A stretch of DNA of 53,457 nucleotides from a plasmid, in the sequence record NZ_CP011050.1. One strand, written 5' to 3'. Each line of letters opens with the position of its first letter. Position 1 is the first letter of the stretch. A model generated the notes under the pieces. The model searched no databases. It had not been told where the DNA came from and saw only the letters and a program-made list of their open reading frames with translations. A program made the position numbers and the translations under genes. Of the stretch, positions 1 through 44,944 are shown one piece after another.

Positions 1-66
1 TACCGGTGAGAACGGGCCAGGAGGAACATCGATGCCGGTCAGATAATTTTATCGGAGGGAAAGAGT

Positions 67-627
67 GTGAGAGAAGATGTTGAGTTTCGAGTCCGGGCTT
101 TTCGTAAGGCTCTGGAGCTGGCCCGGGACTGCCCGGAGGAGTGCCGTCACCTGGGACGATGGGAAACGGAGTTGCATAATTTTCCGCACGGCAGCTGCGA
201 TATGGCCAGTAATTGTCTTGCACAGTATCTCACGGATAATAAATGTGGCCATCCCTGCATTATTTACATGAATGGCAGCAGGCTGGAAAACTCGCCTGTT
301 CACGCCCATGTAATTGTCATGCTGGACGGTGAGTACATAGATTTGACGCTGGAGCAGTTTGAAGGATATCCGGACTACATCGTGAGTGAACCCATCGAGT
401 CGCAAGGGGTGATAGGCACCCTGTTACGAAGAATTGGGGAAGTCGAAGGACCCATAGAAACGCGTCCAATAAAACTCTCGTCGTCCAGGGAACGTGGAGA
501 TGATATGTACGTATGGCTCCGCGATAAGGCAGATCAAATCCTTGAGGAAGAGAAAAACAGAGCGGTCGACACGGAACCCGGGTGCCCCGTGGAAAAAATC
601 GTTATTGGATATACGGAACAAGATTAA
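67..627 (+). CDS. hypothetical protein (186 aa), GTG start
   Basis: Long ORF with GGAGGG RBS 8 nt upstream of GTG; no recognisable motif. Confidence 0.5.
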   Translation: MREDVEFRVRAFRKALELARDCPEECRHLGRWETELHNFPHGSCDMASNCLAQYLTDNKCGHPCIIYMNGSRLENSPVHAHVIVMLDGEYIDLTLEQFEGYPDYIVSEPIESQGVIGTLLRRIGEVEGPIETRPIKLSSSRERGDDMYVWLRDKADQILEEEKNRAVDTEPGCPVEKIVIGYTEQD

Positions 628-712
628 ATCAGTAACCGCCGTACGGCCTGTTACTGCTACGAAGATACAGCCCGTTTCCGGGCTGTATTCGCAGTCAGGA
701 GCCGCTGCCGGT

Positions 713-925
713 TTACTCTGCATCGATGGCCAGCAATACCATCAACAGTAACGCGATCGGGCACCTGACAGTCAACCGCCCCGGATACACTGCCCGGCAT
801 CCGAGAGCCAGGTACAGGTCCTCATAATTACGCCAGGCACTTTCGGTACCTTTTTCCCGGTACTCACTTCTTGCCACTTCCGTTCTGTATGCCAGCTGTG
901 CCAGCGGGATAATGTCATTAAACAT
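713..925 (-). CDS. small hypothetical protein (70 aa) with hydrophobic C-terminal tail
   Basis: AGGAG RBS 7 nt upstream of ATG; C-terminus PIALLLMVLLAIDA looks like a tail anchor. Confidence 0.4.
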   Translation of the reverse strand: MFNDIIPLAQLAYRTEVARSEYREKGTESAWRNYEDLYLALGCRAVYPGRLTVRCPIALLLMVLLAIDAE

Positions 926-1039
926 TTCAAAACTCCTGTCGGTATCGGGGAACTCCCCCCATTCAGGATCGCGTCACGACGGAGACGACTGCCAGAAATT
1001 AAAGCAAACAAAAAGGCATATGCTAGGCATATGCAAATC

Positions 1040-1090
1040 ATTTTCAACCTTGTATAATGCACCTGTACGGGCAGATCTGCCCGGGTATCC
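1040..1090 (+). promoter_or_regulatory. vapBC promoter/operator: TATAAT -10 overlapping perfect palindrome GGGCAGATCTGCCC
   Basis: TTGTATAATGCACC followed by 14-bp palindrome directly upstream of vapB RBS; typical autoregulated TA operator layout. Confidence 0.45.
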
Positions 1091-1104
1091 GAAGAGGAAA
1101 GAGT

Positions 1105-1335
1105 ATGCGTACTGTGTCTGTATTTAAAAATGGCCAGAACCGGGCTATCCGGCTGCCGCGGGATATGGATTTTGAGGGCGTCAGCGAGCTGGAAATCATC
1201 CGGGAAGGCGACAGTATCATCCTGCGTCCCGTCCGCCCGACGTGGGGCTCCTTCGCGCAGCTCGACAAAGCAGATCCGGACTTTATGGCGGAGCGCGCCG
1301 ACGTGGTCAGCGACGAAGGACGATTTGACCTGTGA
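1105..1335 (+). CDS. vapB: VapB antitoxin (SpoVT/AbrB-type)
   Basis: MRTVSVFKNGQNRAIRLPRDMDFEGVSELEIIREGDSIILRP matches VapB family; stop overlaps vapC start (GTGA). Confidence 0.85.
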   Translation: MRTVSVFKNGQNRAIRLPRDMDFEGVSELEIIREGDSIILRPVRPTWGSFAQLDKADPDFMAERADVVSDEGRFDL

Positions 1336-1748
1336 AAAAGACCTATATGCTCGATACCAATATCTGTTCATTCATCATGCGTGAACAGCCCGAAGCGGTA
1401 CTGAAGCAGCTGGAGCAGACGGTACTGCGGGGACACCGGATTGTCGTCTCAGCCATTACCTATGCCGAAATGCGGTTCGGTGCCATCGGCAAAAAAGCCT
1501 CCCCGCGTCACGCGGTGCTGGTTGAGGCATTCTGTGCGCGGCTTGATGCCGTTCTGGCGTGGGACCGGGCCGCGGTGGACGCGACCACAGAAATCAAGGC
1601 GGCGCTGACCGCGGCCGGCACCCCGATAGGTCCGAATGATACGGCGATTGCCGGGCATGCCATTGCAGCCGGCGCCGTACTGGTTACCAATAATGTGCGT
1701 GAATTTGAACGTGTTCCGGGACTGATGCTGGAAGACTGGACGAAATAA
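1332..1748 (+). CDS. vapC: VapC PIN-domain toxin
   Basis: YMLDTNICSFIM...VTNNVREFERVPGL is PIN-domain VapC; 4-nt overlap with vapB. Confidence 0.85.
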   Translation: MKKTYMLDTNICSFIMREQPEAVLKQLEQTVLRGHRIVVSAITYAEMRFGAIGKKASPRHAVLVEAFCARLDAVLAWDRAAVDATTEIKAALTAAGTPIGPNDTAIAGHAIAAGAVLVTNNVREFERVPGLMLEDWTK

Positions 1749-1796
1749 CCCGAGCTGCCGCTGAGGGCAGCCGGTAAATGAAAAGGACAGGCTGAT

Positions 1797-2294
1797 ATGG
1801 GCGTAAAACTCACGGAGACGCGGATTAACACGCTGCTCTCCACCCTCAATGATCTTATCTGTGAGGATGGTCTGCTGACGCGGGAACAGCGTGAAAATAT
1901 GGTCATGACCGTGGCCACGATCGGAGGTCTTAACGAGCGGATACGTCAGGCTACGGCAGAAAAAGAAGCACGCAAACAGGCGAAGGCCGAAAAGCCGCCT
2001 AAAAAACCACGTGAACCCGACCTGGTGTTTCCGCGTAGCGGAAAGCCCTGGGCCAGTGAAGATCTCGATTTGATACATGGCATCATCGATGGCATTCCGG
2101 ACGAAGAAATCGATAACCAGGTGCTGTGGCTGTCTGAGAAGCAGGGCCGCACGCCTTACGCCATCGCGTTGAAAATTGTGAGTGAAGGGCGTCTGGATGA
2201 AGAGTGGGCGAAACGCTGGCAGCCTGCCGCGAAGGAGATCCGTGAAAAACATGCACAGCAGCTGGAAAAGGTACAAACGTACCAGGAGAGCTGA
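1797..2294 (+). CDS. hypothetical protein (165 aa)
   Basis: ORF with lysine/glutamate-rich central linker; stop 3 nt before next ORF. Confidence 0.5.
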   Translation: MGVKLTETRINTLLSTLNDLICEDGLLTREQRENMVMTVATIGGLNERIRQATAEKEARKQAKAEKPPKKPREPDLVFPRSGKPWASEDLDLIHGIIDGIPDEEIDNQVLWLSEKQGRTPYAIALKIVSEGRLDEEWAKRWQPAAKEIREKHAQQLEKVQTYQES

Positions 2295-2297
2295 TGC

Positions 2298-2996
2298 GTG
2301 TGCCCGGCAACGGCTCGCGCATCGGTGGAATATGACATGGCCATACATCTCATCACGACGTGCAGCAGCAGTAAAGCAGCTGCGCCGGGAAGCAGGGTGT
2401 TTCCTTATCACAACACCGATCTCAGCGCCGCAATGGCAACCTGGCGGGCTCTGCTGAACAGTGAAAGCAGCGCCGCGAAATTCACAACCAGAGAACTCTA
2501 CCGCGGCACACACTGGAAACGGGCTGTGTCGGCAATGACATGCTGGCCAGAAACCGAGTTGTGGGTGATATCCGCAGGTCTGGGATTGCGGCATGCCACC
2601 GATCCGGCGTTGCCCTATGAGGCGACATTCCATGCCATGACGCATGCGCCTGCCGCCGTATGGAAAAGTCTGACGACGCAGCCACCGTTTCCCGGTCGCT
2701 GCGCCTCGATAGCGGAGCTGATGCACACATATCCGGGCGACAACTTTGTTATTGCCGGCTCGCCGGTGTATATCAGCGCAGCGGAGAAAGACATCGTTAC
2801 GGGGCTTGACGCTCTGGATTCTGCTCCGGTGCAGCTGACAGTGGTGACGTCAAAGAAGTATACCGGACCGCTGCAAACGTATGTTGCTGCAAGCAACGCT
2901 GGCATGCTGTCACAGTTGAACGCAAACATGACAACACTGAACATTAGTTATGCGTTAAATATTATCAAAGGTCTCATTACTGCCAGACAATATTAA
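2298..2996 (+). CDS. hypothetical protein (232 aa from GTG 2298, or 219 aa from ATG 2337)
   Basis: Coupled to the upstream gene (stop/start 3 nt apart); no recognisable motif. Confidence 0.45.
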   Translation: MCPATARASVEYDMAIHLITTCSSSKAAAPGSRVFPYHNTDLSAAMATWRALLNSESSAAKFTTRELYRGTHWKRAVSAMTCWPETELWVISAGLGLRHATDPALPYEATFHAMTHAPAAVWKSLTTQPPFPGRCASIAELMHTYPGDNFVIAGSPVYISAAEKDIVTGLDALDSAPVQLTVVTSKKYTGPLQTYVAASNAGMLSQLNANMTTLNISYALNIIKGLITARQY

Positions 2997-3499
2997 TTTT
3001 TTCATCGAACGATCGCTGCAAAAAAAAGAGACCGAATGATATTTACAATATACGTTCAGTGGAAAATGGAGCCTCATTATTACTCCTTCATACTGGCGGC
3101 GTTACCCGGCCAGCATTATGCACAAAAATAGATCGCCCGAACTTATTTGATGGTTTTATTGCGGTATTACCTGTAAAGTAAATAGTTCCATTGCCGATAA
3201 CAAGCAAAGCTCTTGTTAATTATTTTATCGGCTCCAGGTTATGAACGATTTTCATCTTTTCAGTATTTATCTTTCGCAGAAAAACAAAATTCAGGCTATG
3301 CTGATCCTTCGCGATAAATCAGAATTTGCGGCCAGAAAAATAATGGAAAAGGCATATATACGAGTGCCGGCATGCACCGGGCGGATATTCTGGAACTGGG
3401 TGCAGAGTTATATTTACACTGCCTGTCGCAGTGAGCAGGAGAATACGTTTGAAGGTACTGTCAACCATTCACAAAATTCCTTTCAGAGCACTGCAGCGA

Positions 3500-4225
3500 A
3501 TGACACTGCTGAATCCCGGAGCAGTGGATTTGGTGAAACTCCTGGCGATGCTGGCCATGCTCCTCGATCACTTCAACACGCTGTTTCTGAGCCCGCTGCG
3601 GCCGGAACTGTATGCGCTCGGCAGAGCGGCCTTCCCGTTGTTCAGTCTGATCTGGGCCATCAACGTAAACAGGAAGCCGGAACGTCTGCAGTTTCAGGCA
3701 AACCGGTTATGGCTGTGGGCAGTAGTAACCCAGCCGGTATTCATGCTGGCATTTCGCCAACTCGATCCGTGGTACGCGCTGAATATTCTCTTCGTATTTG
3801 CCGGCACAACACAACTCCTGGCCTGGCACCGACAGTCCGGAACCTGTGGCCTCGCCGCAGGTACAGCTCTGCTGGCGGTACTTGCCTGGCCATTGTCGCC
3901 GGCAAGCTATGGTCTGCAGGGCGAAATTCTGACGGTGGGGCTGGCTGTAATCGCCGGCAGCGCATCAGCGCAGGTTCGGTACTGTGCCGGCTGGGCAGTT
4001 TTCCTGTCGCTGGTAACCCTCAACGGCGCCTCACATCTTGCCACCATGCCTGTGGCGACACTTGTGTTTGCCACGTTACCGACGTGTCTTTTTCCCTGGA
4101 TGGTCGTGACTGCCGCACAGCAGCTCATGGCGGACAAACACCGGCGCTGGCTTCCGGCCCGGTTCTTTTATCCGGTTTATGCGGGGCATCTCCTGCTCGC
4201 CGGAACGATAGTGTATTTTGTTTAA
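3500..4225 (+). CDS. traX: TraX-like F-pilin acetylase (orphan, no other tra genes)
   Basis: LLDHFN...GRAAFPLFSLIWAINVNR...RLWLWAVVTQ...YALNILFVFAG parallels F TraX (VLDHAN...GRGAFPLFALVWGLNLSR...RLWGWGIIAQ...EGNILFAFA); multi-TM. Confidence 0.75.
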   Translation: MTLLNPGAVDLVKLLAMLAMLLDHFNTLFLSPLRPELYALGRAAFPLFSLIWAINVNRKPERLQFQANRLWLWAVVTQPVFMLAFRQLDPWYALNILFVFAGTTQLLAWHRQSGTCGLAAGTALLAVLAWPLSPASYGLQGEILTVGLAVIAGSASAQVRYCAGWAVFLSLVTLNGASHLATMPVATLVFATLPTCLFPWMVVTAAQQLMADKHRRWLPARFFYPVYAGHLLLAGTIVYFV

Positions 4226-4282
4226 ACAGAAGAGGTCTGCCTGTTCTCTACAGGCCTGATAAACCATTAAAAAGGCGATCTG

Positions 4283-4510
4283 ATGCGAAGCGATGACGTT
4301 GTCTTCACGTATGAAACAGTGACTAATGAAACCGAGCGGCTTATTACTGAATACGCAGCCTCAGTACGAGAATTGCCTGAGAAAAAGGAGGCATGTTATG
4401 CAGCGGCGTGTGGAACTCTTGAACTGTGGCTGAGCCTTACAAAACATCAAAATAATCCCGATGCAGCAAGACTTCTGCACCTCACGTCTGAGATATTAAA
4501 GCTACGATGA
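4283..4510 (+). CDS. small hypothetical protein (75 aa) in the position finO occupies in F; not FinO-like
   Basis: ORF only, weak RBS. Confidence 0.3.
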   Translation: MRSDDVVFTYETVTNETERLITEYAASVRELPEKKEACYAAACGTLELWLSLTKHQNNPDAARLLHLTSEILKLR

Positions 4511-4550
4511 TTGCCTGTCGGGATGTCTGAAGGTAAATGCTCTTACTTTA

Positions 4551-4588
4551 TTAATAAGTTAATAAGTTAATAAGTTAATAAGTTAATG
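4551..4588. repeat. tandem octamer (TTAATAAG) x4.75
   Basis: Directly visible perfect tandem repeats between convergent genes. Confidence 0.9.
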
Positions 4589-4710
4589 TGCATACTGATT
4601 GGGGTGCGTCAGCTTACCCTCCATCTCTTATGGGGTTGATGTGTGGCGGTTAGATATACCGTACCCCCTTCTCAGATCTGGCTTCTATCCCGGACAGACT
4701 GCATGTACAT

Positions 4711-5451
4711 TTACTTTCCGAATCTCTGATTAAGTCTTTTGGTCAGCACTTCTATGGATTCTTTACGCTTTGAGAAAATGTCGTTCACAACATACTCCAT
4801 TATCTCAAATGCATCCTCGATATCTCTTACTTTAACTTCGTCGAGTGTATGACTGCCGGCATTACCGAGAAATTTAATCGCCATTAACGGGCTGGCATAG
4901 TCTGAATAGTTGTCGGGCAGATGCTTTTCGAGTCGCTCATGTAGAACAATCCTTTTGCCTTTGTCATTCCGTTCAGGAACGCCGATAGCTGTCAGCAAAC
5001 GCTCGACAGTAATCCGAATCAGGTTGGCCGCCGAACCCGGCTGCGCCAGGTAAACCGAAAATGATGCAGCAAGCGGTTCTGAGATTTCTTCCGGACATTC
5101 AACTTTAATTGTGAAAGGGTTAAGCGCTGGCACAAAGTTGACGGGCTTGAATACCTGCCAGTATACCGTACCCTTTTCATGTTCCCAGCCAGATTCATAA
5201 CGGCTTATACCAGAGCAGCACACAACTTCCCGACATTGGGATCGCGAGCATTTTGCCATACAACAAAATACACCAGAATACATATCAGCCTCAAACCACA
5301 ACTCGTCCTGCATTCCCCGGTTCTCAGAGGTAGGTGCCTCATAGAGAGATTCTTGAATTATTTCCAGAGTCAGCTGCCCACAGGCCGGGCATGGCCATTC
5401 AACCTGTCCAGTCTTATCGAAAGCTTTCGAAAGTTTATGTATTCTCATCAT
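4711..5451 (-). CDS. hypothetical protein with N-terminal Cys-rich zinc-ribbon-like region and C-terminal DUF4145-like helical domain
   Basis: CPACG...CC..C....C..VVCC cysteine cluster; C-terminal ...IKFLGNAGSH... resembles the R..GN.aaH signature of DUF4145. Confidence 0.45.
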   Translation of the reverse strand: MMRIHKLSKAFDKTGQVEWPCPACGQLTLEIIQESLYEAPTSENRGMQDELWFEADMYSGVFCCMAKCSRSQCREVVCCSGISRYESGWEHEKGTVYWQVFKPVNFVPALNPFTIKVECPEEISEPLAASFSVYLAQPGSAANLIRITVERLLTAIGVPERNDKGKRIVLHERLEKHLPDNYSDYASPLMAIKFLGNAGSHTLDEVKVRDIEDAFEIMEYVVNDIFSKRKESIEVLTKRLNQRFGK

Positions 5452-5615
5452 TAATTACTTTTCATAAGATTAAATTCATACCTGTTAAGCTTTCTAACAG
5501 GCCAGCGTAATATGCACTAACCATACGACACGGGCTCGTTATGACAAAATGAAATAGTGAAAGTTACCGACATGTCGTGAACGCAGACAAACAAACAATT
5601 ATAAGGAAAGAAACA

Positions 5616-5759
5616 ATGTCAAAATCCGGCAATTCAGGCACAACGAAAACGGGTGGCCGCGGTCCATCAAGCCATCCGGGACAGGGCGGGAACTGGCCAA
5701 GCACAACAGGTAACCCCTCCGGTCGCGACAGAGGTAATGCGCCCCCGAAAAGAAAATAA
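5616..5759 (+). CDS. glycine-rich 47-aa protein resembling a colicin/klebicin N-terminal translocation segment
   Basis: AAGGAAAG RBS; MSKSGNSGTTKTGGRGPSSHPGQGGNWPSTTGNPSGRDRGNAPPKRK is Gly/Ser/Asn-rich like bacteriocin T-domains. Confidence 0.4.
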   Translation: MSKSGNSGTTKTGGRGPSSHPGQGGNWPSTTGNPSGRDRGNAPPKRK

Positions 5760-5804
5760 GTCAGCTGGTACATCTCATCCCCATGTTCAAACACCGGTTA
5801 TTAT

Positions 5805-5891
5805 CATGCCCGAAGGGCATAAAAGGCGGCTCATTTTCCCCCAGGAAGAAGCTGCCTTCAAACCACCGGGCCCTGCTTCATTTCATATGCC
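5805..5891 (+). repeat. ~87-bp direct repeat copy A (pairs with 7370-7456), contains hairpin ATGCCCGAAGGGCAT
   Basis: ~85% identity between the two copies over ~87 bp; internal stem-loops. Confidence 0.85.
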
Positions 5892-6140
5892 TTAGCCACT
5901 TAAGTTAGCAACTTATTATGTTAATAAGCATTATCCCGCTGAGCTGGCCTCTTACTACTCATCTTGATGGTTCCCGTGCATGCATTGGGTGTCCGGGTGA
6001 AAACTGGGTCAGAGTTTCATACAGCGCGGTCAAGAGTTCAGCCAGCTGCGGGCAGGGTGAGAAGCAAGGTAAACATTTACGGAATCCGTACCGTTACGCG
6101 TCAAGCCTGTATATAATTTTATCCGGAAAGGGAGAAGATT

Positions 6141-6464
6141 ATGATCATCAGTGAGAAAGACTTATATAACGCAGGCTTTAGTGAACGCGATGTTGAAAAC
6201 CTGAAGAGTCGGGTCTCTCATGGAGGAGGCACTATGGACGCGCTCATCTCTGCGCTTTCCCGTCGCTTTCGGGTTTCAGTATGGGTAACGGTGGGCCTGA
6301 TACTGGTAATGCTATGTGTACTGCTTGCCGGCAACCGTACCCATATTGTTTCAGGTGGTGTGAGTGCTGTTATAGCGCTGGTAATTGTATGGGCAACGTT
6401 TCCACCTTCTCTTGGTATGAAAGCCCGCCGGCTGGAGAAATTTATTTCTCGCCGGGATCGATAG
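6141..6464 (+). CDS. small 2-TM membrane protein (107 aa), candidate immunity/partner protein
   Basis: Two hydrophobic helices (VWVTVGLILVMLCVLLAG; VSAVIALVIVWATF); 3' end overlaps the convergent gene. Confidence 0.45.
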   Translation: MIISEKDLYNAGFSERDVENLKSRVSHGGGTMDALISALSRRFRVSVWVTVGLILVMLCVLLAGNRTHIVSGGVSAVIALVIVWATFPPSLGMKARRLEKFISRRDR

Positions 6465-7245
6465 ATAATAAATTTACCGCAACGCTGGCGGTAAGCCCCC
6501 ATCCAGCGATATTCAGAGCCATCATCGGACGTGAGGTTTTGGAGACCTTTCTGAAAAAGTCGGGTCTTGTCCAGTACCAGAGGCGCTGCACCTCTGGCCT
6601 TAATCGAAGCCCGTACATGCCATAAACGTCACTGACGAGAGTGACGGCTTTATAGGCACCCAGCCCCTGCTGACGACTGAACCCCAGGAACTCAGCAACT
6701 TCCATAGAGCCGTCAGCGAAAATACCTTCTGTCTTTTTATCATCAAGTAAAGTGCGGGCTGCTGCCTTGGTAATGGTGTTAACGCCATTCACAATAATGA
6801 TTGCCCCGGCAATCACGCCCATCGGTGTCATGGTGGCCATCATCGTAATCCCGCCGAAAATCGCAATACCGCCGATGACGACGTCCACCCCGGAAATGAT
6901 GTAACCGATGATTTTGTTTTCTTCCTTGACGACTTTTACCTCGGCATAGAGCTTTGCGTAACCAGATTTCAGCGCCCGGGATTGCTCAAGAAGGCTGTCA
7001 TTTTCTGCACGAAGCGTTTTAATGCAGGCCATACACTCATCATCTGTTTTTGCGCGTCTTGCCGCTTCAAACTGATTCATGATGACTGACTTGATCTCGT
7101 CAACAAACTGCAGCCGCGAAAGTCCGTCATGCAGATGCATGGACGCCACGGTATTTGCGGTATTAACGAGTTTCCGTGCTTCAAGGTTAATCATGGTATC
7201 AGACCATGCACGGCGGTTCTGACCGGGGAAAAGGAGCGTGTCCAT
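6442..7245 (-). CDS. hypothetical protein (267 aa) with central ~45-aa hydrophobic hairpin; candidate membrane-active toxin-like protein
   Basis: Soluble N-terminus, then IIGYIISGVDVVIGGIAIFGGITMMATMTPMGVIAGAIIIVNGV, then soluble C-terminus; convergent and overlapping with the 107-aa membrane protein. Confidence 0.45.
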   Translation of the reverse strand: MDTLLFPGQNRRAWSDTMINLEARKLVNTANTVASMHLHDGLSRLQFVDEIKSVIMNQFEAARRAKTDDECMACIKTLRAENDSLLEQSRALKSGYAKLYAEVKVVKEENKIIGYIISGVDVVIGGIAIFGGITMMATMTPMGVIAGAIIIVNGVNTITKAAARTLLDDKKTEGIFADGSMEVAEFLGFSRQQGLGAYKAVTLVSDVYGMYGLRLRPEVQRLWYWTRPDFFRKVSKTSRPMMALNIAGWGLTASVAVNLLSIDPGEK

Positions 7246-7369
7246 TTTATGTCCTTATTGATGCCTTCTCACAGCATATCCCCGGACATGAAATTTTCAA
7301 CTTTGCGCGATCTGAATCGTCTGGATGATCGAATTCTTCATGAAGACAGCGGCCTCTGCGCCCGATAAA

Positions 7370-7456
7370 CATGCCCGAAGGGCATAAAAGGCGGCTCACA
7401 GACCTTCCATATGGCGCTGCCTTCAAACCGCCGGGCCCTGCTTACTGTCATATGCC
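7370..7456 (+). repeat. ~87-bp direct repeat copy B
   Basis: See copy A. Confidence 0.85.
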
Positions 7457-7849
7457 ACAAGCCCCCCCCCGTCCTGCCAGGCCATAAACCCCTTTAAAAC
7501 CACGTAAACGCCTCCCTGCGCCTTCGGAGTGGGACGGACGTAGTCCGGCCGTATCTCCGGCTTGGCGGACCCGTCAGGGGCCGCTTAGCGGCGTAGTTAC
7601 AACATCCGCTAAAGCGGCTCCTGTTCCGGGCCTTCGGCCCGGGGCGGGCGCGGCTTTTTAGTGGGTGGATGCGGGCTCCCTGCGTTCAGGTACGGCGCGA
7701 GGGTTTCAGCGTGGCCGGACGTGGCACTCTGGCTTCAGAACGGCGATGGTGCCGCCGGGGCATAAACTACTTCAATTTTTTGTGTGTTGTAACTAAACCT
7801 GCTGCTGTGCACCGGCCCCGTGCCCGGCGCGGAGCGCAGGGAGCTACTT

Positions 7850-8060
7850 CTGGTTTTCCCCGTTATCCACGGGATAAGTGGGCTGAAATAAGGGTTCTCT
7901 TATGAATATAAGTAAGGGGTGAAACCCCTGATTGAATTGCGCCTAACACGAAGCTGGTTGCAGCTAAACCCTTTTTCCTGTTTGCGGATAAGTGTGGATA
8001 ACATCATCTGCGCGGCGGCCGGCGGGATAATTCCGCCGGAACGGGTAACGACGGCCATAA
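7850..8060 (-). promoter_or_regulatory. oriR: IncFII-type oriR region downstream of repA1, with DnaA boxes and inverted repeat
   Basis: TTATCCACG (7863-7871) and TGTGGATAA (7994-8002, perfect DnaA box on opposite strand); repeated GGATAAGTG; inverted repeat CCGGCGG-N7-CCGCCGG at ~8030. Confidence 0.55.
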
Positions 8061-8140
8061 CGTTCGGGTGTTTTTTGTGCAGTGAAAGTGTGCGGACGTG
8101 GGGAAGCCTCCGCAGCAAAGCGGAGAATCAAAAAACGGGG

Positions 8141-8908
8141 TCAGTGGAGAGGTGGCGCCGCGGCCGGTGCGTCCAGATTCACCAGTTCGAGCTGATAGAG
8201 CTGCTGCCAGACCATCTTTTCAAACTGCTGTGATGAAACCATGCCGGCACGCTCCCCGAGGCTGCGGTAGAGGCGCTCTGCCACCTGGCGCTTGCGCTCA
8301 TCGAACGGCAGCTGCTCCAGACGACGTCGCTGTTTGCCTTCCAGCGCACGCGTGCGGCGACTCAGGACAGTCCGGTTGCGGCAGCTTTCATACCAGCGGC
8401 GGCGGGCAGCCTTCAGGCTCAGGGTTTCGCCTGGCTGCAGCATACCGTCGCGGATGGCCTGCCGGCGCGCTTCCTGCTCGGCGCGAAGCCTGTCCATGTT
8501 AATGCCGGTCAGCTGCCAGCCCGCCTCGGTGAGCAGGACATGTTTCGGGAAACGGCAGCCGTTCATCAGGTCCCACTCGGTCGCCGGCGCATCGATGACG
8601 CCGAACAGGCAGAGCAGTCGGATGGCCCGGGACACACGGGAAACGGTCACCGCCTTTTCACGGATGATGGTGCCGTTCTCGTCACGCGGGCTCAGGGCTT
8701 CCGCCAGTCTGGAGACATTAAGGGTGATGATATCGGTGGCCAGGTCCGCCGCGTTAACGAACACCACGAACAGGGCATCGATCAGGCGGCGCATCTCCGG
8801 GCGAAGGGCGCGTTTGCGGCCGCAGGCATGGCGCAGTATCACAAAGCGAATATCGGCAGACACGCGACGGCGTACCTGCCAGTGACCCGTTTTACGATCG
8901 TGCAGCAT
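8141..8908 (-). CDS. repA1: IncFII-family replication initiator RepA1 (N-terminus may extend or be coupled to a leader peptide)
   Basis: RKRALRPEMRRLIDAL...VSRVSRAIRLLCLFGVIDA...basic Arg-rich C-terminus parallels R100 RepA1; ORF stays open upstream of the first ATG. Confidence 0.75.
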   Translation of the reverse strand: MLHDRKTGHWQVRRRVSADIRFVILRHACGRKRALRPEMRRLIDALFVVFVNAADLATDIITLNVSRLAEALSPRDENGTIIREKAVTVSRVSRAIRLLCLFGVIDAPATEWDLMNGCRFPKHVLLTEAGWQLTGINMDRLRAEQEARRQAIRDGMLQPGETLSLKAARRRWYESCRNRTVLSRRTRALEGKQRRRLEQLPFDERKRQVAERLYRSLGERAGMVSSQQFEKMVWQQLYQLELVNLDAPAAAPPLH

Positions 8909-9099
8909 GAGGTTACGCAGCGCGCGGCCGTGTTCACCACTCAGGGGTTTGTAGTGCGCCGGACGCAGGTAAACCGGGTCAGGGCATTTGCAGGCCGTGG
9001 AATGGATGCCACGGTGGCGCCGGTCGGCGGGGGGATCAGATTATCATTCACGCCGGCCTTTTCTTATGGCGGCCGGGTGTTGTGTTATGTAATGCATGC

Positions 9100-9197
9100 G
9101 TTATAATCCTTCACAGGCTACCAGCCTGCTTTTGGGCCCCCTGAATATCTGAAGATTCCGCCAAGTTTCTGTACAGATTTCAGGGGGTTTTTGCATT
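9100..9197 (+). ncRNA. copA: CopA-like antisense RNA of the IncFII replicon (hairpin 9137-9187 plus T-run)
   Basis: Plus-strand stem CCCCCTGAATATCTG/CAGATTTCAGGGGG with 22-nt loop followed by TTTTT, ~200 nt upstream of repA1 on the opposite strand. Confidence 0.45.
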
Positions 9198-9610
9198 CGG
9201 GCTCCGGCAACTGCCTTTCCCGCTCCTGAGCGTCTTACGGACGCGCCCAATCCTTTTGTCCTTCCTTCTCCGTCCGGTCGCATTAACGAACGCAGAAGTT
9301 TTTTCTGCCTTATCTGTCCGGCTTCAGCCTCACCACAGGCTTTCACCGCATCCGCTCATTTCCGGTCACCACACCAGTCCCGAGCGGGCAATTTCAGTTA
9401 AGTCAGAAATTTAAAATATATCAGCCAGATACCTCACCACAGGCGTCCCGGCTCGCAGAAGTCTACCGCTTTGCCTGCTAATTTTCTACCTGTCACCGCT
9501 CAGCAAGTGTGCGACTGCTGAAAATTTTCATGTTCCGGGAAAAATACCGTGACCGGCATCTCCTTTCAGGCTTCAGAAGGCGGTATCAAAACCTGTCGGA
9601 AAAAACCGGG

Positions 9611-9665
9611 AGGGCTCGCCGCAGACTCAGACCGTGAACGGTCTGAGCAAGGAAGCGCAGGGGAA
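9611..9665 (+). repeat. 55-bp direct repeat copy 1 with 22-bp palindrome CTCAGACCGTGAACGGTCTGAG
   Basis: 53/55 identity with 10626-10680; the two copies bracket the dsbA-like gene. Confidence 0.9.
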
Positions 9666-10541: not shown

Positions 10542-10625
10542 TCCTCTGATCTACGTTCTTTCTGAATATGTCGATTATGCCCGAATTCTTCCCGCTCAGG
10601 CTGCAGGCTGTCTGAAAAAGCTGGC

Positions 10626-10680
10626 AGGGCTCGCCGCAGACTCAGACCGTGAACGGTCTGAGCGAGGAAGCGCAAGGGAA
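10626..10680 (+). repeat. 55-bp direct repeat copy 2 (palindrome at 10641-10662)
   Basis: See copy 1. Confidence 0.9.
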
Positions 10681-12280: not shown

Positions 12281-12629
12281 ACATCTGCATCTGAAGCGCC
12301 CCCTGCGTGTTTGTAAGGCGTTTCTTTTCTGATTAGGTTGTTTTCTTAGTGTTTTTTATGTAAGGCTCTACTGGCTTGATAAATACCACTCTGATTTCAG
12401 GCAGTCCCGCTCGTTTGTTCGTTCCAAACATATAATTTCCGCGAACGTATCCCACAACGAAAAGTAGAAAATTGGCAATATCTAATCGAAACAACAAAAG
12501 ATGCCCATCAGGATGAAGTTTGGCTGAGAAAATTAAGCTTTAGGAGTGGTCACATCAAAACTTTCAAACATACGATTAACTGCCATGTTTTTCTTGCCTT
12601 TTAAAGGGCAAGAGGATTATACTAAGTTT

Positions 12630-12688
12630 GTCACGCGTACAGATGGCCTCGTTGGTTAATTGAAAAGTTACCTTCGAGGCCTTTTTAT
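12630..12688 (+). ncRNA. sok: orphan sok-like antisense RNA (second, degenerate hok/sok locus lacking an intact hok CDS)
   Basis: Promoter TTGCCT-17-TATACT, then GGCCTCG...CGAGGCC hairpin plus TTTTT; homologous to the sok region at 13826-13887; the minus strand keeps the hok leader/SD, but the ATG is followed by an unrelated 17-codon frame. Confidence 0.5.
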
Positions 12689-13511
12689 TTATGCCTGATG
12701 ACGCTTCATACATCATATAAACGTCATGAAGCGAGAAATTACTTTAAAAAAGATTTCAATTTTCACATGCCATTTCCTCATAAATAACAACATAAATACA
12801 GACGTACACGATCACGACAAATAATTCACGCAAAAACAAATAAACGCATGGTGAAGCAAAAGACACAACCTATAAAATAACGATAATACCAACAATCACA
12901 CCGCAAAGAGTTCTTTTATAAAGACGCACCTTTTTTTAAACATACGCTCCCCCATAAAAAACACAAAAGTATAAAGTGAAAGTAGCAAAAATAAATACAA
13001 CAAAAGAACCTATAGACTTACAAAAAACTACTAATTATTTTCATTAAGTGCAAAAGACTATCAAGTGAGAAAAGTGTAAATTTAACCACGAAAGAAATTA
13101 TTATTACTTACCTGCCCCCCGATTATTGGATACAACCGTCAAATAGTAGTGTCGTTTTGTTAACCTTCTGGTTAGCGTTCTATTCAGCCTGCTGCAAAAA
13201 TTCAAAAGGCACATGATAATTCAACGAAGAATGAGGGTTTACTGATAAGCCGCCATCAATAACATTTTCCGACATACTGTTAATTGTAGGATTTACATCT
13301 ACTTATTGTTGTCGGGGACGCGCCAGTCAAGAACCTGATTAATGATGACTAGTTTATCTTCATCTTACACTGATATTTCAGCGTAGCCTGTACAAATAAT
13401 CGCTAAACGCCCGCAGGCAACATTAGAACTTTGATGGCGTAAATATTTTCATCAGCTTTATATAAACCCCTGCCTGCAGAGCCTGCCGACGGGCTTCACC
13501 GGCCTGTATGC

Positions 13512-13618: not shown

Positions 13619-13777
13619 GCTACTTACCGGATTCGTAAGCCAGAAACGCAGCGAACTCCCTTTGCCCGTCCTTCAGTCGTAATTCACAGAGCGAATTACG
13701 CGTCAGTAATGTGAATATCAACAGCGTTAAACATACGGTTAATACGCACCAGAACAGAGTGCTTCGCGGCAGTTTCA
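13619..13777 (-). CDS. hok: Hok/Gef-family type I toxin (52 aa)
   Basis: Reverse-strand translation [52 protein letters not shown] closely matches Hok ([52 protein letters not shown]); AGGAG SD. Confidence 0.9.
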
Positions 13778-13836
13778 TGGCCTTCTTCTCCTTGCCTTAC
13801 GGCGGGTAAGAGGCTATCCTGATGTTGTTCAAGCAT
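13697..13836 (-). CDS. mok: Mok (modulation of killing) overlapping reading frame
   Basis: [49 protein letters not shown] starts upstream of hok and overlaps it out of frame, as in hok/mok/sok. Confidence 0.6.
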
Positions 13837-13887
13837 GCAGATGGCCTCGTTGGTTAATTGAAAAATTACCTTCGGGGCTTTCTTCTT
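13826..13887 (+). ncRNA. sok: Sok antisense RNA
   Basis: Promoter TTGCCT(13791)-17-TATCCT(13814); transcript is complementary to the mok start region; hairpin GGCCTCG...CGGGGC plus T-rich run. Confidence 0.6.
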
Positions 13888-14599
13888 TCTGCCTCACAAC
13901 AATGTTACACACCACGTGAACGTCATGAGACAAAAAGCCTCAAGCGCCACGGGCATTATATCCCCATGTCGATTATCTGCCCAGGACTAACAGTCCTTAA
14001 GCCTGTATAAACGCTCACCATTTTCCTCGGTCATTCTTTTCCTAATATTCCCAGAACCTCATGAATCATAGCGGCGCGCTATTCACTTTAACGTAGGCTG
14101 CGGGCACGCAAAGGTGAAGCTGGTATTGTGTCGCCAAACACGGGTTCGAGAGGCGACCCAATCCAGATGCTCCGTATGAGCGTTAGATAAACCTACGTCA
14201 GGACACATCAAGGCTGGCTGTATCGTGTCGTGGTTGTAGATTTGTTCTCAGTAAGATTATCGGTTGGTTAATGCACTACAGATGACGGTGTAACTCCCAG
14301 TATGGCCGATCAGTTCAGAGTTCCACCCTTATGTAGGTGCTGACATAACTATCAATTTTCATCGTACGAAACTACATTACTCATCTACTCAAAAACTCAA
14401 ATGAGTTGAAATAATGATTTATAATGTTTCCGCAGATGCTCTATGGCTACAGTTGTAACCATGGGGCCTGTGTCGTCGTCTTCAGATACCCCTTAAGGCA
14501 CCATCGTCCCTTCACTGGCATAGCTAGTAGCCAAACATCGCTATGCGCGTTTCTATGGATATTGATTCTGTGTCCGACCGTAGGCGGATAAATTTGTAT

Positions 14600-44599: not shown

Positions 44600-44944
44600 C
44601 AGATGGGGCAGGCTCACGATCACGTGATAACGCCAATGATGCAGCTGCAGGATCCGGAGAAGACCAGAGTCATTATCGTGACGCTTGCCGAAACCACGCC
44701 GGTACTGGAAGCGGCCGGGCTGCAGCAGGACTTACGCCGGGCCGGGATTGAACCCTGGGCGTGGGTCATCAATAACAGCCTCGCGGCCGCGAAGCCGTCC
44801 TCCCCGTTCCTGGTCACCCGTGCCCGTCGCGAACTGCCGCTGATCGACGACGTTGCCGGGCATTATGCACAGCGCATTGCCCTGACGCCACTGCTGAAGG
44901 ACGACCCGGTAGGCGTGGACCTGCTGGCTGAAATGGCGGGCTGA
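44600..44944 (+). pseudogene. arsA: arsA 3' fragment (last ~110 codons only)
   Basis: TPMMQLQDPEKTRVIIVTLAETTPVLEAAGLQQDLRRAGIEPWAWVINNSL parallels the C-terminus of the intact ArsA at 47303-49054. Confidence 0.8.

Follow-up and report, generated by a model that had tools for sequence, protein, structure and literature searches.

In Vibrio parahaemolyticus, a protein with the domain DUF4225 is an antibacterial effector of a type VI secretion system (T6SS) (Jana et al. 2022, PMC9765294). Its toxicity requires targeting to the periplasm, the protein being harmless in the cytoplasm; it causes lysis and is neutralized by a neighboring protein of 89 amino acids (aa) with three transmembrane (TM) segments (PMC9765294). 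Fusions of DUF4225 domains to PAAR, VgrG, Hcp, Rhs, and contact-dependent inhibition (CDI) delivery domains exist, with the majority of the homologs being standalone proteins (PMC9765294), and the domain is present in the Ssp-Rap T6SS effector locus of Serratia. The second described system to be considered is the replication origin of plasmid R1, which replicates unidirectionally and possesses Ter/Tus sites near oriR (PMC4999828). Relatives of both occur next to each other in a stretch of 53,457 nucleotides (“the window”) of the plasmid record NZ_CP011050.1, where a convergent gene pair for a 267-aa DUF4225 protein and a 107-aa membrane protein is bracketed by two direct repeats, the repeat copies R1 (positions 5800 to 5891) and R2 (7365 to 7456). 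The window is part of a Cronobacter metal-resistance plasmid with 99.7 to 99.8% identity, over the region tested, to pCTU3 (FN543096) and pCMA2 (NZ_CP013942); the annotation of pCMA2 lists ars, pco, and sil operons and two replicons. We are moderately confident that the locus is a composite of two unrelated things which became juxtaposed, a DUF4225 toxin/immunity module and repeats of an element that belongs to the replication origin.

The 267-aa protein is encoded on the minus strand between positions 6442 and 7245 and is a standalone DUF4225 protein, predicted to be an antibacterial effector toxin. The assignment to this family is secure: PF13988 covers residues 77 to 237 with an E value of 1.2e-31 and 109.8 bits against a cutoff of 25.9, and the match includes positions 2 to 164 of the 165 positions of the model. 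Size and location of the domain in the C-terminal two thirds of the protein are similar to those of the effector from V. parahaemolyticus CFSAN018764 (PMC9765294). Approximately 100 clusters of full-length homologs were found, all of them with PF13988, and the subfamily of standalone proteins of about 267 aa is large in the Enterobacterales, with identities to the window protein between 37 and 92% over the full length. The N terminus is conserved and helical, and hydropathy indicated a hydrophobic hairpin at about residues 111 to 156. An AlphaFold2 model reached a mean pLDDT of 56 and was confident only for three N-terminal helices; a Foldseek search of the PDB with this model yielded no match at an E value of 0.001 or below, and phmmer found nothing significant among the PDB sequences. 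The region around the hydrophobic hairpin (residues 100 to 165) displayed two sub-threshold similarities, to NheB (NCBIfam, E value of 0.006, 15.7 bits against a cutoff of 500) and to AopB (PDB, E value of 0.43). These pore-forming or translocator proteins were rejected as fold relatives because the similarities are too weak and confined to the hairpin, and they were not used. Upstream of the toxin gene, a single plausible −35/−10 pair is located at positions 7300 to 7273 of the minus strand.

The 107-aa protein is encoded on the plus strand between positions 6141 and 6464 and is the predicted cognate immunity protein. It has two TM segments according to hydropathy, and both genes converge with an overlap of 23 bp, so that the arrangement is as given in the preliminary description, which had been made from the letters and the open reading frames (ORFs) alone. 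There is no Pfam or NCBIfam model for the partner family; homologs of the 107-aa protein were present in 17 protein clusters, down to an identity of 64%, and judged by sequence comparison the ORF is a genuine gene. All nine distinct DUF4225 loci examined, namely the window, the second pair in L003, L011, L012, L013-15, L121, L122/123, L124/125, and L126/127, contain a gene for a protein of about 106 to 109 aa that converges on the toxin gene from its 3′ side. The spacing between toxin and partner genes ranged from an overlap of 26 bp to a gap of 134 bp. Their contexts include a chromosomal contig of 309 kb, a nar/TraX region, the flagellar region of K. aerogenes, integrated plasmid DNA in Erwinia, an IncFII plasmid of E. 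hormaechei, and plasmid pA137-2, which carries the second pair in L003; at two of the nine loci the annotators had missed the partner gene. Full-length alignment of the partners gave 19 to 28% identity; they share motifs, length, and the two TM segments, and diverge faster than the toxins, which are 37 to 56% identical. Fast divergence is usual for immunity proteins. The sequences thus compared suggest a conserved family of convergent immunity partners that appears not to have been described before. A hairpin TTACCGCAACGCTGGCGGTAA is located at positions 6474 to 6494, where it closely follows the stop codon of the 107-aa gene and falls within the final 17 codons of the DUF4225 gene, and scored as terminator-like on the minus strand.

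The toxin/immunity-type pair that had been proposed from the gene layout is upheld by the DUF4225 match and the convergent partner in nine of nine loci, and the pair is predicted to be a toxin/immunity module, with toxicity and immunity deduced by analogy to the Vibrio pair. The two-gene module extends from position 6088 to 7306, a length over which it is conserved, at a nucleotide identity of about 75%, on chromosomes and plasmids with unrelated surroundings. In pA14-2 and pA137-2, the 107-aa gene is intact and the DUF4225 gene is truncated, the match ending at window positions 7024 and 6706, respectively. An intact partner with a truncated toxin is an orphan-immunity pattern, here in an array together with Rhs/DUF1795, SMI1/KNR4, and DUF1493 genes. 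Such a polymorphic-toxin-type gene array is located beside the same origin in the C. dublinensis plasmids pA14-2 (L002, positions 1 to 8400), pA137-2 (L003), and pA84-2 (L004), and comprises Rhs with DUF1795/EagR, SMI1/KNR4, a duplicated DUF1493 gene, the truncated DUF4225 gene with its intact partner, and a second complete DUF4225 pair.

In the proposed mechanism, the DUF4225 protein would be an orphan effector directed against the envelope or membrane of a target cell, which it would reach by delivery, most likely through a T6SS with genes elsewhere in the host. The 107-aa protein would be the cognate inner-membrane immunity protein, the gene of which, transcribed alone from the opposite strand, need not depend on transcription of the toxin gene. 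The small multi-TM partner immediately adjacent to the toxin gene and the frequent mobile or orphan contexts agree with the V. parahaemolyticus pair (PMC9765294). Delivery by a T6SS is an analogy to this characterized effector, and several observations weigh against it. Neither Hcp nor VgrG nor PAAR nor adaptor genes are in the annotation of pCMA2, in contrast to the neighborhood of the V. parahaemolyticus pair, and none was found within 6 kb at four divergent standalone DUF4225 loci. Moreover, the published immunity gene is located downstream of its toxin gene on the same strand and encodes a protein of 89 aa with three TM segments (Imm4225), whereas the window gene is convergent, overlaps the 3′ end of the toxin gene by 23 bp, and encodes 107 aa with two TM segments; the two immunity families were compared by their descriptions only. 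In addition, a profile search did not detect an N-terminal delivery domain in the 267-aa protein.

Alternatively, the pair could be a module of the toxin-antitoxin (TA) type for plasmid maintenance or abortive infection, acting in the producer cell instead of being secreted. In its favor, no secretion genes are near any sampled locus, the pair is found among vapBC, hok/sok, and relE-type modules beside replicons, the hydrophobic hairpin of the toxin could insert into the membrane from the inside, and a convergent, separately transcribed partner is unlike the typical co-transcribed effector/immunity operons. On the other hand, the characterized DUF4225 protein is harmless in the cytoplasm, toxic in the periplasm, and delivered by a T6SS, and the domain is fused to delivery domains (PMC9765294). 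The related Cronobacter plasmids carry the Rhs/EagR (DUF1795), SMI1/KNR4, and DUF1493 genes of a polymorphic-toxin neighborhood, and truncated toxins with intact partners fit orphan immunity. A function of the pair inside the producer cell is regarded as rather unlikely.

The layout of the gene pair also mirrors that of the operons for pore-forming colicins such as colicins A, E1, and Ia, in which a plasmid-borne gene for a membrane-active toxin is followed at its 3′ end by a small membrane immunity gene of opposite orientation. The preliminary description had accordingly considered a degenerate or novel bacteriocin-like locus, strengthened in its view by a Gly-rich mini-ORF resembling a colicin T-domain; in the full form of this explanation the mini-ORF would be the remnant of a translocation domain. 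Besides the layout, only the sub-threshold similarity of the hydrophobic hairpin to NheB mentioned above could be added in its favor. None of the three ORFs matched a colicin or bacteriocin family in Pfam or NCBIfam, no relationship in sequence or domains to the colicins and no receptor or translocation domains were found, and the toxin, of 267 aa, has its hydrophobic hairpin in the center. A search for an SOS box was negative, there being no LexA box (CTG-N10-CAG) in either upstream region, and no lysis gene was noticed, although no search was aimed at lysis genes. The statement that the 267-aa protein is not a canonical colicin was therefore correct, and a colicin-like locus is extremely improbable.

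The Gly-rich mini-ORF itself exists. It encodes 47 aa rich in Gly, Ser, and Pro (5617 to 5759, plus strand), has a good ribosome binding site, and matches no Pfam or NCBIfam model, those of colicins included. An identity as a KGG-type stress protein or colicin T-domain was discarded for lack of a family match. The ORF is located in the 200-bp left flank of the repeat copy R1 (5604 to 5804), contiguous with R1, and thus inside a duplicated replicon-edge segment from 5604 to 5891. Plasmids pA14-2 and pA84-2 have a segment homologous to R1 plus flank (86%) immediately next to the origin; the ORF is retained in four plasmid copies beside the element and frameshifted in one more, and is absent from all other DUF4225 loci. 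Its linkage is with the replicon edge instead of the toxin module, so it does not strengthen a bacteriocin reading. The neighbor of the Gly-rich ORF is a gene for a DUF4145 protein with a Cys-rich N-terminal region (4711 to 5451, minus strand, Pfam E value of 1.4e-10). A tandem 8-bp repeat TAAGTTAA of about five units lies at 4539 to 4598 between a 75-aa ORF and the DUF4145 gene, and an imperfect inverted copy of it (79%) is present at 5900 to 5927, immediately to the right of R1.

The two repeats were recovered by repeat search, ungapped comparison, and BLAST (E value of 3.6e-17 within the window) in direct orientation with an offset of 1565 bp. Their presence was as first described; their identity is with 71 of 87 positions (81.6%, 5805 to 5891 versus 7370 to 7456) slightly below the approximately 85% initially given. 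They are composed of a block of 29 identical positions out of 29 (CATGCCCGAAGGGCATAAAAGGCGGCTCA), a divergent middle of about 17 nucleotides, and a block with 37 of 41 positions identical. Both contain the perfect hairpin ATGCCC-GAA-GGGCAT (hairpin A, starting at 5806 and 7371) and a further stem, AAGGCGGC/GCTGCCTT, which folds in R1 and R2 alike, in agreement with the first description. A third copy was not found in the 53-kb window by repeat search or BLAST. In a survey of plasmid records, matches occurred in 15 to 16 of 72,556 records, in one or two places each and always beside an IncFII-like origin or as a duplicate of that region. Repetitive elements of the REP, ERIC, or MITE type would have many dispersed intergenic copies that are independent of the replicon, which is not what was observed in the window and the plasmid records, and the identity as a REP/ERIC element was rejected: the repeats belong to the replication-origin region, with two copies in 53 kb. 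A blastn comparison of the repeat with phages gave no meaningful similarity, and Rfam had no match at R1 or R2, neither in the whole window at the gathering threshold nor between 5500 and 8200 at a permissive threshold.

The two-gene module (6088 to 7306) is present at about 75% nucleotide identity in five loci without the repeat, and the repeat was found elsewhere without the module. Module and repeats recur independently of each other; hence, the repeats are not part of the module. The refuting case named in the first description, an intergenic element of the REP/ERIC type unrelated to the genes, consequently applies with respect to the missing relationship, but not with respect to the REP/ERIC type, since the repeats derive from an origin-region element.

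According to the sequence comparison, R2 is the outermost conserved piece of an IncFII-like replicon composed of repA, a DnaA box with oriR, two Ter sites, and the element. Homology of the replicon backbone starts at the left edge of R2, at positions 7367 to 7383 in four related plasmids and at 7357 in four more, and the element follows the stop codon of repA at a distance of 685 to 750 bp in Cronobacter and Pantoea plasmids and of about 950 bp in Kosakonia. From position 8124 down to 7381, the window is collinear with plasmid R100 in the order post-repA (CIS) region, DnaA box, two inverted Ter sites, and element. The DnaA box of the oriR-like origin is TTATCCACA (7993 to 8001, minus strand). 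Two Tus-binding (Ter)-like sites are situated between this box and R2. The first, GGATGTTGTAACTA (7593 to 7612, minus strand), is collinear with the R100 Ter-like site at about position 10217 of L016, and the second, GTGTGTTGTAACTAAAC (7782 to 7802, plus strand), which has the inverted orientation, with the site at about 10086 of L016. Both share GTTGTAAC cores; ColIb-P9 has one Ter-like site, at position 2028. The IncFII-family repA gene is located at 8141 to 8908 on the minus strand, as listed from the first ATG, and a PK-repBA regulatory pseudoknot (Rfam RF01089, 90.9 bits) is found upstream of it at 9065 to 9189 on the same strand. The repA homolog of pCMA2 begins at a GTG near window position 9052. 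A run of C residues at about 9030 to 9052 on the minus strand of the repA region is one base shorter than in pCMA2, CCCCCCGCC versus CCCCCGCGCC, which shifts this GTG out of frame, and the first in-frame ATG, GTG, or TTG of the window repA is at 8908. The shorter C-run is either a sequencing error or the sign of a damaged replicon.

The replicon of R100 is located at 88 to 90.6 kb of this plasmid. Its counterpart of the element, at about 90419 to 90525 of NC_002134, reads, on the strand equivalent to the plus strand of the window, ATGCCGC-ATCA-GCGGCAT-GGAAGGCGGC...AAAACCGCCG-AAG-CCCGGC-GTAA-GCCGG-TACTG. It shares the hairpin and the long-range stem with the window element and adds a third hairpin directly before TACTG. 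A hairpin followed by TACTG is also present in ColIb-P9 (NC_002122, about 2250 to 2330), and in both plasmids the arrangement resembles stem-loop I plus CTACTG of the complementary-strand origin of phage G4, oric. A 539-bp block that includes the element is 85% identical between R100 and ColIb-P9, with the remainder of both replicons being barely similar at the nucleotide level, and the R100 version of the block is conserved at 90% or more in at least 5000 IncFII plasmids. R100, ColIb-P9, and the window have the hairpin and RRAAGGCGGC ... AAACCGCCG in common, in the same place of the collinear replicon and, with repA as the reference, on the same strand. TACTG and the DnaA box are separated by comparable distances, 554 to 558 bp in the window (R2, 7443 to 7447) and 585 to 589 bp in R100. 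The collinearity of the element region with R100 and ColIb-P9 is in this way evident from the aligned sequences.

Masai and Arai in 1989 and Bernander and colleagues in 1992 reportedly placed a primase-dependent G-site, the start of the leading strand of plasmid R1, about 400 bp downstream of oriR, and Tanaka and colleagues in 1991 are said to have located a G4-type single-strand initiation (ssi) site near the origin of ColIb-P9. The TACTG of R100 is 398 bp past the end of oriR if the 188-bp oriR is assumed to begin at the DnaA box, and this spacing agrees with the reported G-site position of about 400 bp. On the grounds of position, collinearity, and this literature, the element is assigned to the G-site/ssi class, and priming is a prediction. 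Opening of the origin would allow the plus strand of R2 to fold into its hairpins, and the primase DnaG would lay a leading-strand primer at the CTG just 3′ of them (TACTG, 7443 to 7447). Leading-strand synthesis would then proceed leftwards, away from repA; the TACTG of R2 is on the plus strand, the predicted template of a leading strand moving in this direction. R2 would be the resident and possibly functional copy and R1 a relic.

A number of points weigh against such a priming function. The position of the element in R100 and ColIb-P9 is only presumably that of the published G-site and ssi site. R2 consists of hairpin A (7371 to 7385) and the long-range stem B (GGCGGC...ACCGCC) followed by CCCTGCTTACTG; the hairpin adjacent to the CTG in R100, ColIb-P9, and G4, that is, the third hairpin immediately 5′ of TACTG, is missing from the Cronobacter element, which differs from the two plasmids also by the degenerate second copy 1.5 kb further on. 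Homologs in Kluyvera and Kosakonia have TACG or TCCG in place of the CTG. The origin-proximal copy of pA137-2 is devoid of hairpin A, which is therefore not indispensable, and the IncFII replicon of E. hormaechei (L122) contains no recognizable element. The oric of phage G4 had no blastn similarity to any plasmid. Finally, R2 did not fold better than shuffled sequences, with z-scores of −0.27 as RNA and +0.53 as DNA.

Thermodynamics by itself gives no support for a structure of the element, and the fold z-scores are unremarkable overall, with R1 on the plus strand alone exceeding the shuffles. Structural support of a modest degree was obtained when 24 distinct copies, taken from eleven genera, were aligned; CAT, AAGGCG, and C-CCG were invariant. 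Hairpin A was 95.7% paired in this alignment, with one compensatory change in Pantoea (ATGCGC/GCGCAT). Pair 5 of stem B was G-C in 8 and A-T in 16 sequences and broken in none, and sliding of the stem B partners against each other lowered the pairing from 91% to 26 to 37%.

A conserved structure could also act at the level of RNA, either as a small RNA or, through stem B on the minus strand followed by UUUUAU, as a terminator or insulator. R2 would then block read-through from repA and the origin into the toxin gene, and R1 would end the toxin transcript after its antisense passage through the immunity gene. The minus-strand fold of R2 indeed displays an 8-bp stem, GGCGGUUU/GAGCCGCC, followed by UUUUAUG, the end of the element in a Rosenbergiella plasmid is a canonical hairpin with a T-run (plus strand), and other plasmids have copies upstream of genes within longer repeats. 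Nevertheless, the terminator scan called neither R1 nor R2, and neither Rfam nor the fold z-scores, with the exception of R1 on the plus strand, pointed to an RNA element. In addition, different replicons have the element at a conserved position with respect to the origin, whichever gene adjoins. These functions as RNA are, taken together, judged quite unlikely. The numbers of promoters and terminators predicted by the scans were not above those in shuffled sequences.

Compared with R2, the repeat copy R1 (plus strand) is diverged and bears the marks of decay. A C.A mismatch in stem B (CCACC) is present in every R1-type copy, a mismatch in hairpin A as well in pA14_a, and the R1 of the window has lost TACTG. 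From the sequences, R1 is probably a decaying relic that arrived together with its left flank by recombination between related plasmids. Five of the 12 Cronobacter plasmids possess two direct copies with differing cargo of 1.5, 3.0, 3.2, or 4.5 kb between them. The extent of the duplication varies between 630 bp in pA14-2 (DUF1493 gene, Gly-rich ORF, and element), 201 bp in pA84-2 (element plus 115 bp of the origin side), and 87 bp in the window. Variable repeat extent, varied cargo, and stem-breaking changes fit repeated recombination at the edge of the replicon and not a site-specific cassette system. The replicon edge would in this way be a recurrent breakpoint for the exchange of toxin/immunity genes and other cargo, and the element itself may be recombinogenic, with the breakpoints clustering tightly at its ends.

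The preliminary description had regarded the repeats as the possible ends of a mobilizable cassette. In this explanation, they would be recombination sites of the attC, Xer/dif, or res type bounding the toxin/immunity genes. The different cargo between two direct copies in the five Cronobacter plasmids could be interpreted this way, and so could the breakpoints at the left edge of the element, which cluster within about 25 bp (7357, 7367 to 7370, and 7383), and the superficial similarity of a hairpin with a variable center to attC. This is contradicted by the occurrence of the module without repeats in the five other loci and by the repeat lengths of 87, 201, and 630 bp, which reach into flanking genes or the origin side as in homologous or illegitimate recombination. 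R1 and R2 are 18% diverged and R1 contains the stem-breaking changes. No integron integrase or recombinase is nearby; the sole integrase annotated in pCMA2 is about 9 kb away beside the RepB replicon, the second replicon of the plasmid besides the IncFII-like one. No GTTRRRY-type core site was seen when the sequence was read by eye, and in R100 and ColIb-P9 the element belongs to the conserved replicon. With module and repeats each occurring alone, the cassette had to be abandoned as the likely explanation, and repeats serving as its recombination sites are very unlikely.

Parts of the element also appear outside of IncFII-like replicons. A core of about 60 nucleotides, ATGCCC-loop-GGGCAT-GGAAGGCGAC ... 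AATCGCCGG, is contained in direct repeats of 200 to 670 bp in IncN-like and Serratia contigs. Two direct copies with the loop GTCA (ATGCCC-GTCA-GGGCAT-GGAAGGCGAC...AATCGCCGG) are present in each of the IncN-like L044, L063, L065, and L099 and the Serratia contigs L075 and L108, and these repeats bracket or precede genes for antirestriction (PF03230), DUF3560, LPD29, and MucA-like proteins, which are typical of leading regions. The motif search of the contigs required AAWCGCCG and so did not cover the R100/Cronobacter subtype (AAACCGCCG), and about 70 of its matches, in unrelated phyla, were due to chance; only matches from Enterobacterales that also bear an ATGC...GCAT hairpin were used. Conserved upstream (CUP) repeats have been described from the leading regions of IncN plasmids (Delver & Belogurov 1997, cited in PMC6289460), and the IncN-like and Serratia repeats resemble these. 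The similarity to the window, in contrast, stops at the core, and those copies precede leading-region genes instead of following an origin.

A more far-reaching possibility is that the element is a member of a wider, undescribed family of plasmid elements active as single-stranded DNA (ssDNA), defined by a hairpin plus RRAAGGCGR ... CGCCG. Such elements would serve priming or initiation at IncFII and IncI origins and would be reiterated in conjugative leading regions upstream of anti-restriction genes, and their ends would be recombination hot spots that assemble toxin/immunity and anti-defense cargo. The hot spots might perhaps result from 5′ ends of nascent leading strands that arise at the element; R1 ends 9 nucleotides past the predicted start position of the primer, which would fit an origin by end-joining. 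As a whole, this extension is speculative and has a small likelihood.

Other features of the window were recorded in passing. A 73-bp direct repeat (92%) is present upstream of repA at 9593 to 9665 and 10608 to 10680, and related plasmids have copies too. A second sok-like segment at 12582 to 12729 is 75% identical to the Rfam sok match (13776 to 13949), where it aligns with 13780 to 13928. Inverted repeats occur in the sil/pco region (44630 to 44781 versus 47617 to 47466).

The apparent cassette thus resolves into two explained parts, so that there is no novel bacteriocin or mobile element to pursue, and the locus is mostly ordinary, being composed of a known toxin family and an origin-associated hairpin element. 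The profile searches and the copy-number survey that had been recommended with the first description gave PF13988 for the 267-aa protein, a homolog family without a model for the 107-aa protein, and two repeat copies in the window with matches in few plasmid records. For the Enterobacterales, the standalone DUF4225 toxins with convergent partners of about 107 aa, which are unannotated and often uncalled, should aid the annotation of effector/immunity pairs, and the partner family also that of orphan immunity genes. The region just outside of the ssi-like element of IncFII-type replicons would be a recurrent breakpoint for the exchange of cargo, which matters to the comparative genomics of plasmids, and the core shared with the leading-region repeats may be of interest for work on ssDNA promoters and priming sites.

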